DNA from: an uncultured Alphaproteobacteria bacterium
GTDB lineage: Bacteria; Pseudomonadota; Alphaproteobacteria; RF32; CAG-239
Length of the DNA: 64,000 nt
Direction: 5' to 3'
Assembly (NCBI GenBank): GCA_944390275.1
Contig: CALXPL010000004.1
Coordinates: forward strand, 95,814 to 159,813
The notes under the pieces are model-generated. The model was not told the DNA's origin and did no database searches. It saw only the letters and a list, made by a program, of their open reading frames with translations. The position numbers were made by a program, and so were the translations under genes. Every line of letters starts with the position of its first letter. The stretch's first letter is position 1. Positions 7,786 to 57,639 of this stretch are shown here, in pieces.

Positions 7786-8388
7786 ATGAGCCAGAGCGAA
7801 CCCTTGGGAGAGAACCCGTAAATGAGATAAGAAAAAAGCCGCAATCTTATAATAAAGATAACGGCTTAAAGAATGGTAGGCGCGTGGGGCTGGAGGAAAA
7901 AAATTTCTCCTGAGGAGGAATTTTTGACGACAGAGTCAGAAATGTTAGTTTGCGAGCAAGCGAAAGCGCCGTAAAGCAAACGTTACATTTACTGTTGACC
8001 GCAGCGAGTTAGCGTTTGAGGAAAGCAAACGCTTATGAGCCAGAGCGAACCCTTGGGTGAGAACCCGAGAATGGGGCAAGAAAAAAAGCCGCAATCTTAT
8101 AATAAAGATAACGGCTTATAAACTGGTAGGCGCGTGGGGCTGGAGGAAAAAAATTTCTCCTGAGGAGGAATTTTTGACGACAGAGTCAGAAATGTTAGTT
8201 TGCGAGCAAGCGAAAGCGCCGTAAAGCAAACGTTACATTTACTGTTGACCGCAGCGAGTTAGCGTTTGAGGAAAGCAAACGCTTATGAGCCAGAGCGAAC
8301 CCTTGGGTGAGAACCCGTAAATGAGATAAGAAAAAAGCCGCAATCTTATAATAAAGATAACGGCTTATAAACTGGTAGGCGCGTGGGG
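7784..8388 (-). repeat. tRNA-linked tandem repeat, ~250-bp unit, ~2.4 copies
   Basis: TTATGAGCCAGAGCGAACCCTTGGG recurs at 7784, 8033 and 8283; TGGTAGGCGCGTGGGG (tRNA 3' end) recurs at 7874, 8124 and 8373. Confidence 0.95.
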
Positions 8389-8448
8389 GTTCGAACCCCA
8401 GACCCACTGATTAAGAGTCAGTTGCTCTACCAACTGAGCTACGCACCC
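8373..8448 (-). tRNA. tRNA-Lys (CTT)
   Basis: GGGTGCGTAGCTCAGTTGGTAGAGCAACTGACTCTTAATCAGTGGGTCTGGGGTTCGAACCCCCACGCGCCTACCA; 76 nt, anticodon CTT, encoded CCA. Confidence 0.97.
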
Positions 8449-49004: not shown

Positions 49005-49811
49005 TTAAGCAAATTTAATGCATCTCAACCAAAATTTCGGAGAATTATCTTTCATCATCAAAAACTCGGGAGCAGGCACATGAACACCTCCATTTGTTAA
49101 CACAAAAACCTTTCTGTTAAGAGGTTTCAAAGCCTTTATAAGAGATGGATTAAGATTTTTCAAAGCCCATTCTCGTGTTACAATGAGGTCCTGATAATAA
49201 ATTTCAGACACAGGTTGTCGTTGAATGGTTCCATCGGAGAAATAGCTTCTCTGAATAAGTTTAAAACCGATGACGGTACGAGGGGCATAAACGAGAGCGG
49301 CAATAGCTTCCGCTACGGTAGAGAACCCCGGTTCAACCACTTCTGCACCGATAAGTTCGACGGTATAATCTTGAACAAGCAGTTTCGCAACCGTTGAAAG
49401 TTTTTTCCGATTAATAAAAGCGAACATCAAACTCTCGGGATAAACTTGTACATTATCCGTATAAGGCAAACCATCTTTAAGACGTTCATTAAAAACGATT
49501 TCAGAAAAGCCTTGTTCTTTCCAATCTTCAATTTTTTTAATAAAATGAGAAGGATAGAGAGACAAGTCCAAATCAGGGGTATCAATTTTTAATTTTTTAC
49601 CAAAGGCAAAGATTTGATTATTTTCTTTATTTTCCAACAGACGGGAATTAAGTGTGTAACAAAACTCGCGAGAGAAAGAAATATAAAAACCGTTTCGTTG
49701 ATACATTTGCAGAACGGCCTGTCGGAAAGAACGTTCAATACGAGCCGTATTCAAACCGTCTTGTTCAGCAATGTCAAAAATCGGAACACGAAATAAAACT
49801 TTAGTAGCCAT
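49005..49811 (-). CDS. Hypothetical protein
   Basis: 268-aa ORF with its own TTGACT-N17-TATCTT promoter and a hairpin at about 48969-48998. Confidence 0.55.
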   Translation of the reverse strand: MATKVLFRVPIFDIAEQDGLNTARIERSFRQAVLQMYQRNGFYISFSREFCYTLNSRLLENKENNQIFAFGKKLKIDTPDLDLSLYPSHFIKKIEDWKEQGFSEIVFNERLKDGLPYTDNVQVYPESLMFAFINRKKLSTVAKLLVQDYTVELIGAEVVEPGFSTVAEAIAALVYAPRTVIGFKLIQRSYFSDGTIQRQPVSEIYYQDLIVTREWALKNLNPSLIKALKPLNRKVFVLTNGGVHVPAPEFLMMKDNSPKFWLRCIKFA

Positions 49812-51025: not shown

Positions 51026-53242
51026 ATGGATGATGTTATATTAGACAGACAACCGGTTTCTGTCGTTGTCGGCAAGAACGGAAATATCAAATTAAAGATA
51101 CTGGGATGGGGATATTATCTTTATAATATCATGATAAAAGGATTCCTGATAGGGTTGTTATTGAGTTTAAATTTCAGCTTATATGTAAAGGCGGGAGGAT
51201 ATTCTGTTTTTTCAACGACATATTTGCCCAATCCTGAAGTTTTAAACATAATTTTAGGCATATTTGCGGTATCATTTTTTCTGATGATAGTCTTGTCATT
51301 TTCCGACTTTCTGCAAAATTTGCTGATAGCCGTAGTAGGCGGTTTATTTGTTTTCATGATGATAAATCAGTTTGCCTTGTTTGACAAATACGACTTTATG
51401 ACGCGCAGTTTCATGATTTATCTGGGAGAGGGAGCGGCAAATTTTGTTTCAGGCTCATGCCATATCATAGTCAGTATCATCATTGGCATATTTACCTTAT
51501 TGTATATATATTTTTCGAGCACATCGAATAAACTATATTTAGCAGCCGCATTAGCCTTAATTAATATATGGGTTTTGTACGGAGCATATAACAAAAAAGA
51601 TAATAATAACAATTATGTTTACGAATATGATATGGCAGCAGTAGGAAATGAAAGTGGTAAAAAATTCATCACAATATATTTGAAGAATGCAGCATCATAT
51701 AATTATTTGACAGAACTAAAAGACGGCAACACGCAAGATGATAAAAAGATAAATGATGTACAAAAAATCATGTTAGGATTTTTGGAAACAAATAATTTTG
51801 ACATATATAATAACGCTTACGTAAGCCATAAAGAAGCAGAATTAAACGAAGCAGAGAGTATCAATCCGTTGATAAAAGAAGGACAAGAGATTGTTTCATC
51901 AATAAGAAATGGTTGTTGTTCATGGCAGTTCAGCCCGATAAATGATAAGACGCACAGTTTATTGGAATCACAATTATTAACAACATTCAAAAAAGCACAA
52001 TACAAGATATCGGCATATCAAGGTCGTGGCTTGGATATATGTTACAAATACGGAGTACCGCAAGTTGACAGATGTTTAAACAAATCGAGCGAACCGGCAG
52101 ATGTAAGTTTGTTAGGCAGCAGTACCTCAGAAAAGATACAGTTGTTAAGTGCGCAATGGTTAGAGAGTTCGGGATTACTAGACAGTCCGATGATAAGCAA
52201 AGCCTTAGGAATGGTAAGCAAAGTATTTAAACAACCTGTAAAGAAGCTCTATGTAGTCAATTCGGCACAAGCCTTAGATTTAGCGGCATTAGACATAGCC
52301 AAAGACAAGAACAACGGAGCCTATTTTGTATATGTTGATTTACCGGCAGATATGTTTATTTATAATGAATTTTGTCAGGTAAAGCCGATAGAGAATTGGA
52401 TTTCCATGCAAGATATAAAATCGGCAGAGATAAAAGACGCTCGCAGAGCCTATGCTGAACAATATGCGTGTGTTTTCGGCAAATTGCAGAATTTCATAGA
52501 TAGTTTAAAATCCAAAGGTCTGGAGAAGAAGTCCGTCATAGTCATACAAGGGGCAAGCAGCATGCAAGACCGCGAATATAATAAGAAGACAGAACGGATA
52601 GAGTTAGGTTTCGGAGCAAACAATAATGTAATAATGGCAGTCAGAGATCCCTTGAGAACAGAAAGTACAAAAAATCAGCAAATTTGTAAAACAGCGGAGA
52701 TTATGGCATCCCACTTATTCAAATCGGTTAGTTGTAAGGAATACAAGGGCTTAGGCTTAAGTGAAGAAGAAGCAAAAAGTTTGAAGGAAGCGTTAGGGAA
52801 ATATACGATTTCGGCAGAAACCGAAAAGAAATCGGCAGAATACTTCAAATTATGGTATCAATATTGGTTAAAAGCGAATGGCTTTGATGTAAAAGTAGAA
52901 GACAAGGATCTGGAAGAAACCGCAGAAGAAGAGCAGGGCAAAGACCAAGTTTTGGAAGCCGTACGAGTAATAAAAGAGAACAAAATTATTGATAAAGTAA
53001 TTGAAACGGAAGCGGAAGCTCCGACAAAGAGTTTGAAAGCAGAGATGTTAAAGAACCCCATTTTGCCGGAAGATACGGATATTCAAGGCAAAGCGCAAAG
53101 CGAAGAAGCAAAAGTCGATAACAAAGCAGAAGAGGGCGTTTCCGAAGGAGAAGCCCTACCTTTAAGAGAGCAAACCGCAGAAGCAAAGGCTGCCGGCTCG
53201 ATACCGCAAAATGAAACAGCGCAACCCGTAAAGGGACAATAA
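51026..53242 (+). CDS. Large membrane protein: ~5 TMs, soluble domain (possibly sulfatase/LTA-synthase-like fold), acidic tail
   Basis: TM cluster, then Y.EQ..C.FGKLQNFIDSLKSKGLEKKSVIVIQG, reminiscent of alkaline-phosphatase-superfamily C-termini. Confidence 0.4.
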   Translation: MDDVILDRQPVSVVVGKNGNIKLKILGWGYYLYNIMIKGFLIGLLLSLNFSLYVKAGGYSVFSTTYLPNPEVLNIILGIFAVSFFLMIVLSFSDFLQNLLIAVVGGLFVFMMINQFALFDKYDFMTRSFMIYLGEGAANFVSGSCHIIVSIIIGIFTLLYIYFSSTSNKLYLAAALALINIWVLYGAYNKKDNNNNYVYEYDMAAVGNESGKKFITIYLKNAASYNYLTELKDGNTQDDKKINDVQKIMLGFLETNNFDIYNNAYVSHKEAELNEAESINPLIKEGQEIVSSIRNGCCSWQFSPINDKTHSLLESQLLTTFKKAQYKISAYQGRGLDICYKYGVPQVDRCLNKSSEPADVSLLGSSTSEKIQLLSAQWLESSGLLDSPMISKALGMVSKVFKQPVKKLYVVNSAQALDLAALDIAKDKNNGAYFVYVDLPADMFIYNEFCQVKPIENWISMQDIKSAEIKDARRAYAEQYACVFGKLQNFIDSLKSKGLEKKSVIVIQGASSMQDREYNKKTERIELGFGANNNVIMAVRDPLRTESTKNQQICKTAEIMASHLFKSVSCKEYKGLGLSEEEAKSLKEALGKYTISAETEKKSAEYFKLWYQYWLKANGFDVKVEDKDLEETAEEEQGKDQVLEAVRVIKENKIIDKVIETEAEAPTKSLKAEMLKNPILPEDTDIQGKAQSEEAKVDNKAEEGVSEGEALPLREQTAEAKAAGSIPQNETAQPVKGQ

Positions 53243-55854: not shown

Positions 55855-55950
55855 TTAAAGAACAAGGCAGTAAGCAACCACCTTGTTCAAAAACATTAAC
55901 GAAGAGGTTGCATATAAAGAAACAAATACAAAACGATATAATATTTTCAT
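55855..55950 (-). CDS. 31-aa hydrophobic small ORF downstream of the c4-like RNA
   Basis: MKILYRFVFVSLYATSSLMFLNKVVAYCLVL*; AGGA upstream; occupies the position of icd/kil in c4 operons. Confidence 0.35.
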   Translation of the reverse strand: MKILYRFVFVSLYATSSLMFLNKVVAYCLVL

Positions 55951-56001
55951 AATGTGAACATCCTAAGTTTTAAGTTAAAACAAAAACCCGCACCAAAAGG
56001 G

Positions 56002-56079
56002 CGGGCGGATGTTCGAAACCATTGAAAGTTATGGCTCGGCCTATTCAGCACATAGCCTTATTTAGCCGACATCCACCCG
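56002..56079 (-). ncRNA. c4-type (P1 c4 / P4 CI-like) antisense RNA
   Basis: Closing stem CGGGUGGAUGU/ACAUCCGCCCG (G-U wobble only on the minus strand); two inner stems; ACUUUCA and GGUUUCGA are complementary to upstream UGAAAGU and UCGAAACC. Confidence 0.7.
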
Positions 56080-56125
56080 TAGGTAGAAATCGACGTAACA
56101 TTAAAGTCATCAAAAAATAATGACT

Positions 56126-56206
56126 ACTTTCAGAAGGGTTTCGACGCCCTGAACGACAAAATTGCCGTCTAAAAAAGAAGATAACATGACAAGATAATAT
56201 AAGCAA
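56126..56206 (-). promoter_or_regulatory. Sigma70-like promoter and a1/b1-type target of the c4-like RNA
   Basis: TTGCTT (56206-56201)-N17-TATCTT (56183-56178) with extended TG; target TCGAAACC-CTTC-TGAAAGT at 56144-56126. Confidence 0.6.
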
Positions 56207-56295
56207 GAAGATAATCAAATAAGCCACGAAATAATTAATGAAAGATTCATCAAAATATGGTAAGATATAAAGAAATAAAGAAGAGGCAGATACAG

Positions 56296-57093
56296 ATGAA
56301 TTTTGAAAAAATAGGTGAAACAAACTGTCGAATTGATGATATACAAAATCAAGATAAGATATTGATAGGTGGTTCTTTTTACGGGAAAATGGACTTAGCC
56401 GTTACGGCAGATTTAGAACAATTTGAAGATTTTTTTCAAAAAGTAGAAATCAACGCGCAAAAAGTGCAAGAAAACGAAGCAATGAAAAATTGGATAAATC
56501 AGGTCGCACCAAACCTTGACAGCACTCTATTTGCTCATATGTGGGCTTTTGATAACACCTTACGCAAAATGTATCCAAACTTATCAACCAACATAGACAA
56601 ACGTCAAAATTACTACGATGAGGAAGGAACAAAAAAATTATCTCAGTCCGTATCCGATGGAGTTTGCATGTGTGCCGAAATATCCATTTTAGCACAAGCC
56701 TATTTTCAAAAACAAAACATCCCAACCAAAATTTCGGGAGGAGAACTTTTGCATTCCCAAGATGAAGAATTCGGAGAAGCGCATTATTATATTAGCCTGC
56801 AAGATAAAAAGGGAGAAGATTATATTTACGATCCAGCCAATCCGTTGCTATATTCCAACACCTATTTACCAAGAATATCCACATTAGAAGTAACACCGGC
56901 ACAAAAGAAACAATTTGAAAATAAAATACATTCACAAGGCAAGGGAAGGGCATGTGCCTTTATGGAAGCCAAAGATGTAATAACCAAAACAAGCTGGTAC
57001 TACGGCTTTGGAGACGGCGCCAACATTTTTCCGAGTTTTCTATTTTCCAAAAACAATAAAAGTTCGGTACAATCATCGGAAAACAGCCTTTAG
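56296..57093 (+). CDS. Transglutaminase/papain-like Cys-His-Asp protein
   Basis: GVCMCAEISILAQ...EAHYYI...YIYDPANP. Confidence 0.55.
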   Translation: MNFEKIGETNCRIDDIQNQDKILIGGSFYGKMDLAVTADLEQFEDFFQKVEINAQKVQENEAMKNWINQVAPNLDSTLFAHMWAFDNTLRKMYPNLSTNIDKRQNYYDEEGTKKLSQSVSDGVCMCAEISILAQAYFQKQNIPTKISGGELLHSQDEEFGEAHYYISLQDKKGEDYIYDPANPLLYSNTYLPRISTLEVTPAQKKQFENKIHSQGKGRACAFMEAKDVITKTSWYYGFGDGANIFPSFLFSKNNKSSVQSSENSL

Positions 57094-57177: not shown

Positions 57178-57639
57178 ATGCAAAAGAAAGTGATTGAAGC
57201 GTTTGCCAAAGATTACGCAAACATTTCAAAAAGAGTTTTAAATGCCAAAACATCGATGGAAATTTCCAAAATCCACCATGATTTAAACGAAATAGGCACA
57301 AACTATCGGCAATATTTTTGCAATAAAGGTCATTACAAAGCCGTCAAAAGAGCTTATGTCCGTCAAGCAGTCTTTTTCTATGAAAAGCATCCTAAACTTT
57401 GCTGCCACATTGGAATAGATTTGGCTTTAGACATCTTAAGAAAGGTCATTCAGGGCTGGATACCGATACAAAGAGGACGATTTTCAAGAAGAAAAAAAGA
57501 ATTATCCTATCAATTATGGTATTTTCTTTATGAAAAAGTCAAGAATGCCGGCTATGACTTAGGCTATCCGCAAAAAGATCTTCGCGGAAAAAACTTGTAC
57601 ATCAGATACAAACAAAACAAAGAAAAATTTAAACCTTAA
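57178..57639 (+). CDS. Hypothetical basic protein
   Basis: 153-aa ORF with TTGACA upstream and a terminator hairpin at about 57655-57686. Confidence 0.5.
   Translation: MQKKVIEAFAKDYANISKRVLNAKTSMEISKIHHDLNEIGTNYRQYFCNKGHYKAVKRAYVRQAVFFYEKHPKLCCHIGIDLALDILRKVIQGWIPIQRGRFSRRKKELSYQLWYFLYEKVKNAGYDLGYPQKDLRGKNLYIRYKQNKEKFKP

Follow-up and report, generated by a model that had tools for sequence, protein, structure and literature searches.

The kind of system treated here is already known from c4, P4 CI, IsrK and the multi-copy c4-like RNAs of Acinetobacter (PMC5320573). The c4 RNA is processed by RNase P, and in Acinetobacter c4-like small RNAs (sRNAs) occur in many copies (PMC5320573). P4 CI pairs with seqA upstream and with seqC downstream, which leads to transcription termination, and the short form of IsrK acts in trans on its own read-through mRNA (PMC4825925). 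The locus we compare with these systems lies in a stretch of 64,000 nucleotides, the window, from an uncultured alphaproteobacterium (GTDB lineage RF32; CAG-239; assembly GCA_944390275.1, contig CALXPL010000004.1, positions 95,814 to 159,813 of the forward strand). On its minus strand, at window positions 55855-56206, a promoter-like site, a two-part target, a three-stem RNA complementary to this target, an intrinsic terminator and a short open reading frame (ORF) follow each other. The locus is a real structured RNA leader, one of the many copies of a 5' leader module that occurs in gut Alphaproteobacteria. The family to which it belongs is large and apparently undescribed.

The module is a leader of about 230 nt. 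It comprises a promoter, a hairpin H0, the motif AGGGCGU, a first target segment a1, CCUU, a second target segment b1, a hairpin H1, a sequestor (UGCCGAUUUC...), the three-stem RNA, a terminator, some 35 nt, a Shine-Dalgarno (SD) site and a start codon. The sequence of H0 is free among the copies; AGGGCGU is invariant. A first-pass annotation of the window had listed promoter, target, 78-nt RNA, stems, terminator and a 31-codon ORF, and every one of them is found where it had been placed. H0, H1, a second terminator over the 3' end of the ORF and an SD site complementary to GAACAUCC go beyond that list.

The RNA and its target

Read as DNA, the two-part target of the window copy is TCGAAACC-CTTC-TGAAAGT (56144-56126). 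In the transcript it starts from the invariant AGGGCGU (56150-56144) and continues with a1, UCGAAACC (56144-56137), CUUC and b1, UGAAAGU (56132-56126). The c4/sRNA-Xcc1-like RNA downstream of it is 78 nt long (56002-56079) and has three stems. The closing stem P1 joins 56075-56069 with 56012-56006 and can be extended to 56079/56002; at its full length (56079-56069 with 56012-56002) it has 11 bp including one U-G. The inner stem P2, UCGGC/GCCGA, joins 56068-56065 with 56040-56037. The hairpin P3, CCAU-AACUUUCA-AUGG (56034-56019), has its stem strands at 56034-56031 and 56022-56019. The P3 loop contains b', ACUUUCA (56029-56023), and the linker 3' of P3 contains a', GGUUUCGA (56020-56013). Both exposed segments are perfectly complementary to the upstream target, as the first-pass annotation had stated.

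The RNA and its own upstream target pair, as is proven by covariation in more than 120 copies of the leader, and the address differs from copy to copy. In the 3-nt variable core of a, exact reverse complementarity between a1 and a' is found in 122 of 124 copies, and the cores are of 13 types. With shuffled partners the average was 25.6, and none of 1000 trials exceeded 38. The b1 segment and the P3 loop are hypervariable, yet they remain complementary, G-U pairs included, and the pairing therefore takes place at the RNA level. The mean energy of the b1:b' duplex is -10.8 kcal/mol for cognate as against -2.9 kcal/mol for non-cognate partners. Out of all loops, the cognate one is the best for 91 of 125 targets and among the top three for 121. 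In each of four genomes, which hold 12, 9, 13 and 11 distinct copies, no target has a better or equally good partner than its cognate RNA segment (45 of 45 targets), and the median gaps between cognate and other partners range from 5.3 to 9.9 kcal/mol. The c4-like anatomy that had been proposed, i.e., a three-stem RNA with specificity segments in a loop and a 3' linker plus a two-part upstream target, is thereby corroborated.

In the 1.77-Mb genome the two-part complement pattern is unique. It matches nothing but the target and the antisense of the RNA (backwards control: 0 and 0). When up to two substitutions are allowed, the number of matches, 50, does not exceed that of the backwards control, 62; beyond chance there is thus no second target in this genome. 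A pattern scan of the same genome detected no further target heads of the main type. The sole site with one mismatch, TCGCAACC-GT-TGAAAGT on the plus strand of the window (49385-49401), is probably a chance occurrence.

Two competing folds

As judged from compensatory changes, the leader has two mutually exclusive folds, both of which are kept. One of them is the cloverleaf of the three-stem RNA followed by the terminator. In an alignment of 100 distinct copies, which had been fitted to a covariance model, 97.8% of the cells of this fold are paired and 15 of its 21 pairs change on both sides. None of 500 shuffles reaches this value, and slid controls yield 30-41%. The terminator helix has both-sided changes in five of six pairs. 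In the window this terminator 1 (55977-56005) reads CCCGCCC-UUUU-GGUGCGGG, followed by the U-run UUUUUGUUUU. A simple consensus scan did not call it, its stem being bulged; it is in register with the terminators of the other copies.

The other fold, here called closed, is the nested minimum-energy structure of the whole leader in 123 of 123 copies. GGGCGU-a1-b1 is paired with b'-a'-ACAUCC, and the sequestor (in the window the strand ACGUCGAUUUCUACCU, 56081-56096) is paired with the 5' strands of P1 and P2, so that the cloverleaf is excluded. P1 is formed in 0 of 123 closed folds and the terminator is intact in 122 of 123. Homologous positions of the sequestor hairpin show C-G 107 times, U-A 10 times and U-G 5 times; A-U 66 times and G-C 34 times; G-C 102 times and A-U 11 times, all counts being taken from per-sequence folds, which are biased towards pairing. 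On the sequestor side, an upstream GCYGA tracks the UCRGC of P2. Where the 5' strand of P2 has A for G, which is the case in 11 copies, its 3' strand has U in 11 and the sequestor has U in 10. These 11 copies are probably close kin.

The first three C of terminator 1 double as the closing bases of the extended P1. In most of 101 copies the extended closing stem reaches with two or three G-C pairs into these three C, the combinations being GGA/CCC (53 copies), GGG/CCC (21), GAG/CCC (11) and AGG/CCC (7). Since the three C do not vary, the overlap between P1 and terminator offers no covariation test. An antiterminator GGGCG:CGCCC was also considered. It was dropped, as GGGCGU pairs with ACAUCC in the folds and the terminator stays intact in 122 of 123.

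The Shine-Dalgarno site

GGATGTT (GGAUGUU in the transcript), the complement of the invariant AACAUCC, stands 2-7 nt before ATG in 63 of 148 copies, as against 1.8 expected from shuffles. Near variants of it are found in a further 49 copies, and the commonest SD region among the copies is AAGGAUGUUC. The SD region of the window copy, AGGAUGUUC (55956-55964), is complementary to GAACAUCC (56013-56006), which is the 3' strand of P1. When read-through RNA was folded, pairing of the SD with GAACAUCC was predicted for 36 of 111 copies without constraint and for 88 of 111 with a1b1 made inaccessible. According to these models, the downstream element can be masked by the 3' part of the RNA; it differs from the a2/b2 pair of c4. 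In the start region of the 31-codon ORF, the RNA finds only an 8-nt pairing, GGAUGUUC:GAACAUCC, at the SD. The same pairing occurs before ordinary genes.

The leader family

A blastn search with the 402-nt interval gave matches in 22 of 41 genomes, including 20 of 24 other genomes of the same family, at up to 18 places per genome. They span the RNA and the terminator and often the upstream target too. Twenty-seven copies were fetched and aligned, and a covariance model, R1, was built from 26 of them. In the same bacterial family R1 finds matches in 142 of 151 genomes and 21 of 23 genera: 150 listed and 953 further ones, with at least 25 in each of four genomes. Across the order, at E ≤ 1e-6, 134 of 149 genomes of the own family are positive and 0 of 1 of the sole other family. 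In a sample of the class, with one genome per family, 11 of 149 other families have a match, five of them strong and all of these in small genomes. A phylum-wide sample of 150 further genomes yielded none.

An exact pattern derived from the alignment has 0 matches in IMG/VR; being exact, it would miss diverged phage copies. The same pattern occurs in at least 123 stretches of a collection of species genomes. Nearly all of the records concerned name in their titles uncultured Alphaproteobacteria from the gut of people, ruminants and other animals, and the few with other titles are probably mislabelled bins. Several records (among them those of loci L042, L045, L061 and L161) bear titles such as Eubacteriales, Bacteroidaceae, Lachnospiraceae or Ruminococcus gnavus and hold many leader copies with pilin-like genes; these titles are probably wrong. 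A further one, L119, titled Planctomycetales, has no match to R1 and was taken as a chance match of the pattern. The DNA of the window occurs in sequencing runs labelled chicken gut. Gut-metagenome contigs of two runs (X12 and X20) match the RNA core alone (56033-56092), with unlike sequence on both sides, as is expected for family copies in other organisms of the same samples.

In the genome of the window, R1 detects one strong copy, that of the window (94.9 bits; 77th of 101 aligned R1 matches), and four weak ones of 23-34 bits, which form a diverged subfamily. They lie on the plus strand at C3:152154-152297, C1:489457-489567, C2:140217-140320 and C3:830-956 (L033-L036, on our contigs C1 to C3). 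Their target head is GGAGC...GCUC, the 3' strand of their closing stem ACUCUCC and their terminator GGCCACC...GGUGG. As read by eye, the loop and linker of each of the four are complementary to a and b sites of that same copy, and the four stand before ORFs of 249, 494, 491 and 99 codons. Rfam has no match for L033-L035, the three that were submitted; L036 was left out. The window copy, which the first-pass annotation had described as stand-alone, is thus one of five such leaders in its genome and one of more than 1,100 matches of the family. Some relatives have two modules in tandem or a weaker second module nearby, e.g., L006:1263-1388 with L006:1529-1639 (both plus strand) and L012:3662-3772 (minus strand). 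The first module of a tandem pair may be another orphan.

At the gathering threshold of Rfam, the window contains only a tRNA (8376-8448, minus strand, 69.2 bits). A cmscan of 901 nt around the locus gives as best match sRNA-Xcc1 (RF02221), with 34.9 bits over the whole length of the model; the gathering score is 53. The Rfam family C4 (RF01695), to which the RNA might have been assigned by its anatomy, has no match at E ≤ 10, neither in the 901-nt region nor in the whole genome. Out of 17 other copies, 13 score 27.6-41.4 bits with sRNA-Xcc1 and 4 do not score at all; with C4 one copy reaches 24.8 bits, the cut-off being 45. The RNA shares the c4/sRNA-Xcc1 kind of fold and is outside both Rfam families by their own criteria. 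In the leader family its place is clear: it scores 94.9 bits with R1, its AGGGCKU-a1-b1 upstream is complementary to b'-a', and terminator and SD are in register.

Downstream genes and the probable loss of a gene

The genes that follow the module usually encode surface or secreted proteins. By simple motif rules, the N-termini downstream of 148 copies are pilin-like in 34 cases, carry a lipobox in 31 and are otherwise signal- or membrane-like in 52; 25 show nothing obvious, 4 ORFs have fewer than 45 codons and 2 copies have no ORF. The label pilin-like stands for what we take to be a resemblance to the prepilin cleavage motif, and these proteins have no Pfam or NCBIfam match. A Pfam search with 18 full-length products found OMP_b-brl/Opacity/Surface_Ag_2 in three and EcoRI_methylase, a family-2 glycosyltransferase and TM2 in one each. 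The lipoproteins among them gave weak DUF3244 matches, and the remainder gave nothing.

In the window copy, the leader is instead followed by a hydrophobic ORF of 31 codons (55855-55950). The 31-aa peptide has no Pfam match and no significant match in 150 family genomes, where the two best E-values are 0.07 and 0.09. A very small search with it against the N-termini of the other downstream proteins gave only chance-level matches, with E of about 0.006-0.03. The remaining three short ORFs of the set resemble broken forms of longer genes. Terminator 2, a 12-bp hairpin with a T-rich tail that was called in a simple consensus scan (55860-55888, minus strand), holds the last codons of the ORF and lies just beyond the stop of the converging yejF-like gene. 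In the 14 genomes of the genus that have a YejF orthologue, the RNA is adjacent to it only in the window genome and in one relative, G009. There, the module is followed by a gene for a lipoprotein of 143 aa. Between the two loci, the leader is 69% and the 3' end of yejF 77% identical, and what lies between them measures 115 nt in the window as against 532 nt in G009. From this comparison, the most likely course is that the gene was lost at the window locus and that an intact leader was left before an unconserved 31-codon ORF and terminator 2; the ORF is then probably a remnant where the gene was lost. In annotation, the 31-codon ORF here is not to be labelled a toxin.

Further elements and neighbouring genes

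The promoter-like site consists of the -35 box TTGCTT (56206-56201) and the -10 box TATCTT (56183-56178), separated by a 17-nt spacer, as read directly from the minus strand. It aligns with the TTTACA, TTGACA or TTGCxx -35 boxes of other leader copies. A simple consensus scan did not call it, with 8 of 12 matches and a limit of 9. On the 5' side, folding reveals H0, GACGGCA-AUUU-UGUCGUU (56152-56169), probably at or close to the 5' end of the transcript. The equivalent 27-nt window folds with -5 kcal/mol or less in 112 of 123 copies (112 distinct sequences), as against 21 of 123 when shuffled. H1, AGUCAU...AUGACU (56105-56125), was recognised by alignment of the copies and by folding; in the window copy its loop lacks the GCAUA that is common to most copies. 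A pseudoknot of this loop GCAUA with a downstream UAUGC was rejected, as swapped partners score like cognates (4.21 versus 4.20) and covariation therefore lends it no support. The 111-nt core folds with -39.3 kcal/mol (z = -2.55), and 4 of 200 shuffles fold equally well. In the window copy, no stem is broken, both terminators are preserved and the complements of 7 and 8 nt are intact.

The window copy is flanked by the converging gene of a YejF-like ABC ATPase and by two genes without family matches. The latter, at 56257-57093 (278 aa) and 57178-57639 (153 aa) on the plus strand, have no Pfam, NCBIfam or PHROGs match. The two together resemble an accessory insert, with the yejF-like gene on one side and rpsD on the other; the 278-aa ORF was found in 0 of 14 other genomes of the genus. 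An ORF of 738 aa (51026-53242, plus strand), with several hydrophobic stretches and an acidic low-complexity tail, directly precedes the genes of the YejB/E-like permease and the YejF-like ATPase and has no PHROGs or NCBIfam match. As the first-pass annotation had observed, there are no phage genes near the locus.

Proposed mechanism and alternatives

We consider it reasonably probable that the module is a self-addressed riboregulator of the c4/P4 CI/IsrK type, i.e., a multi-copy leader of which the downstream gene is lost here. Most transcripts would end at terminator 1. The short RNA would be trimmed to the cloverleaf, as are c4 and P4 CI, and would act in trans on nascent or read-through transcripts of its own locus only, by binding to a1b1. 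Binding would shift the balance between the folds, out of the closed one, and would alter both the availability of GAACAUCC for masking the SD and whether the extended closing stem weakens the terminator. If the freed GAACAUCC masked the SD, as the models predict, the outcome would be negative feedback. If, alternatively, the extended closing stem formed, a weaker terminator and a free SD would result in positive feedback. The models lean towards negative feedback, as with c4; the control may also run in the opposite direction, towards activation, as with IsrK.

Several observations weigh against this mechanism. The terminator is predicted to be intact in 122 of 123 closed folds, and its overlap with P1 consists of three invariant C only. 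In the nested energy model, P1 of the cloverleaf forms in 0 of 123 full leaders and in 5 of 111 with a1b1 blocked; the c4-like fold would therefore need prior processing at the 5' side. The Rfam cut-offs for C4 and sRNA-Xcc1 are not reached. Only 63 of 148 copies have an exact SD complement, and copies of the pilin type share one SD region regardless of their a'. Loss of the gene is deduced from one syntenic relative, and in 12 other genomes of the genus yejF has no such RNA next to it; with a single such relative, an insertion in the G009 lineage is possible instead. H0, which needs no address, varies like b1 (normalised distances of 0.54 and 0.51, respectively), and the orthogonality within genomes could result from neutral drift. 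Finally, all covariation lies within one transcript, so that cis and trans action are inseparable on these data, and pairing in cis alone accounts for it.

The last points lead to a different account, which we hold to be possible, if rather doubtful: the leader might act purely in cis, as a riboswitch-like attenuator. Its four segments would be the helix a1b1:a'b', the hairpin of the sequestor, the closing stem in its extended form and the terminator. A protein, a ligand, the temperature or a ribosome would toggle the leader without any RNA acting in trans, and its likeness to c4 would reflect no more than common ancestry or convergence of fold. Such an attenuator would be at ease with covariations that all connect parts of one transcript, with a closed fold that is the minimum-energy structure of all 123 leaders, with a genome devoid of a second target, and with an H0 that is as variable as b1 without needing an address; the highly conserved unpaired AAUAAGG, GAGCC and AGGGCGU could bind a factor. 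Against it, P2 and P3 have compensatory changes of their own (the pair 14:48 is A-U in 11 copies and 55:95 in 17), which the closed fold does not need, and the cognate is strictly the best in all 45 copies compared within genomes. Moreover, the sequence of a target, an RNA with its address in loop and linker, and a terminator is the layout of c4, CI and IsrK, which act in trans (PMC4825925, PMC5320573).

The self-addressed riboregulator also has to be compared with the functions that the first-pass annotation had in mind: a stand-alone, domesticated immunity module directed against related phages, or a type-I-like toxin switch that represses the 31-aa peptide. The short hydrophobic ORF directly after the RNA and the absence of phage genes nearby would fit them, as would the report that sRNA-Xcc1, which of all Rfam families is closest to this RNA, precedes the toxin gene symE in integron cassettes (10.1101/2025.06.18.660453). 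We nevertheless regard both functions as highly improbable. Nearly all copies precede ordinary genes, ORFs of less than 45 aa follow in 4 of 148 cases only, the peptide has no significant relative in the 150 family genomes, and the syntenic relative has its lipoprotein gene in that very place. As to immunity, the exact pattern scan of IMG/VR was negative, and each RNA matches its own leader, which in the window genome is the sole matching site. The peptide is thus unconserved, as had been envisaged for a decaying edge of a prophage; the locus is not such an edge. Just as improbable is a repeat that is decaying or selfish, for instance a miniature mobile element or what remains of one, and that would have no present function at the locus. 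High copy number, varied contexts and the state of the window copy, which ranks 77th of 101 with 94.9 bits, has an H1 loop off the consensus and lacks its gene, might suggest it. Yet the module is always oriented the same way and immediately followed by an ORF, promoter and SD are integral parts of it, the alignments reveal neither terminal inverted nor direct repeats, and the complements, stems and terminators of the window copy are intact. What is retained of the first-pass interpretation is the c4-like working; the stand-alone nature, phage immunity, the toxin switch and membership in C4 are not.

A more far-reaching possibility, which we consider unlikely at present, is a genome-wide set of RNA-only switches, in which each surface-protein gene has a private short RNA and target and feeds back on its own locus only. 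The genes would be those of pilin-like proteins, Opa-like porins, lipoproteins, glycosyltransferases and DNA methylases. With positive feedback, as in IsrK, each gene would be bistable, heritably ON or OFF, and surface diversity resembling phase variation would arise without any change of DNA. The orphan in the window would then be a leftover or a free-standing member of the network.

Comparison with known systems

The c4 RNA of phages P1 and P7 (RF01695) resembles the leader RNA in being a three-stem RNA that derives from its own operon's leader. In both, b' lies in a hairpin loop, a' is single-stranded beside the closing stem, and the transcription unit also contains the complementary a and b sites (here a1-b1 upstream). 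Copies differ in their specificity segments and in the matching targets in both systems. Phage P1 also has an upstream a1/b1 pair. Unlike c4, the leader has no second a2/b2 target over the ribosome site of the downstream gene; it has instead a terminator after the RNA and an SD that matches the 3' strand of the closing stem, GAACAUCC. The ant/icd-type context of phage or prophage immunity is absent too, and host surface-protein genes stand downstream in place of icd/ant. The 7-bp acceptor-like stem of the RNA begins at GGA and has CCC after its 3' strand; the GGA at the 5' end of the closing stem resembles the GGW site of RNase P (PMC5320573).

With P4 CI the leader has in common an RNA from an untranslated leader, a complementary target upstream (seqA) and, presumably, premature termination as the outcome (PMC4825925). 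It differs in having one upstream two-part target and an intrinsic terminator that abuts the RNA, the two systems being likened by description. The P4 system has the downstream target seqC and uses Rho-dependent and other terminators.

With IsrK of the Salmonella prophage Gifsy-1 the likeness lies in the presumed working. A single IsrK promoter gives a short terminated RNA and a translationally inactive read-through mRNA, and the short form shifts the long one between two structures in trans (PMC4825925), a step that the leader would share by analogy. IsrK, however, activates and is a single prophage locus, whereas the leader is chromosomal, with up to at least 25 copies per genome that have different addresses. 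Neither the window copy nor the 17 other copies match IsrK in Rfam.

The best Rfam match, sRNA-Xcc1 of Xanthomonas (RF02221), likewise lies upstream of a protein gene, symE, and in the same direction (10.1101/2025.06.18.660453). It differs, since the scores remain under 53, since it is carried in integron cassettes and since the passages cited report no self-target for it (10.1101/2025.06.18.660453). The Group 1 c4-like sRNAs of Acinetobacter baumannii are a large chromosomal set, processed from longer transcripts and variable in their specificity loop (PMC5320573). In contrast to the leader RNAs, they match Rfam C4, their proposed controllers are two separate antisense sRNAs, and the cited text does not describe them as gene leaders with a cognate target upstream (PMC5320573).

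Neither Rfam 15 nor text searches of the literature yielded the use as a standard leader of surface genes, a self-target that is upstream only, a built-in terminator combined with an SD mask, orthogonal addresses, or the host group; a motif c4-a1b1, listed by Weinberg et al. 2010 (PMC2864571) and lacking an Rfam number, may be relevant to the upstream target. The distinct addresses, with the cognate best in 45 of 45 cases from four genomes, form a natural set of orthogonal RNA-RNA pairs. They would offer a testable example of RNA feedback confined to one locus and directed at genes of the cell surface, and would supply ready-made parts for synthetic biology. c4, P4 CI and IsrK are isolated curiosities known from phages and prophages. 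In the present family, their shared logic, in which an RNA derived from a leader recognises a site of this very leader, appears to be repeated up to at least 25 times per genome, as the standard front end of genes for surface and secreted proteins across a whole family of uncultured gut Alphaproteobacteria.

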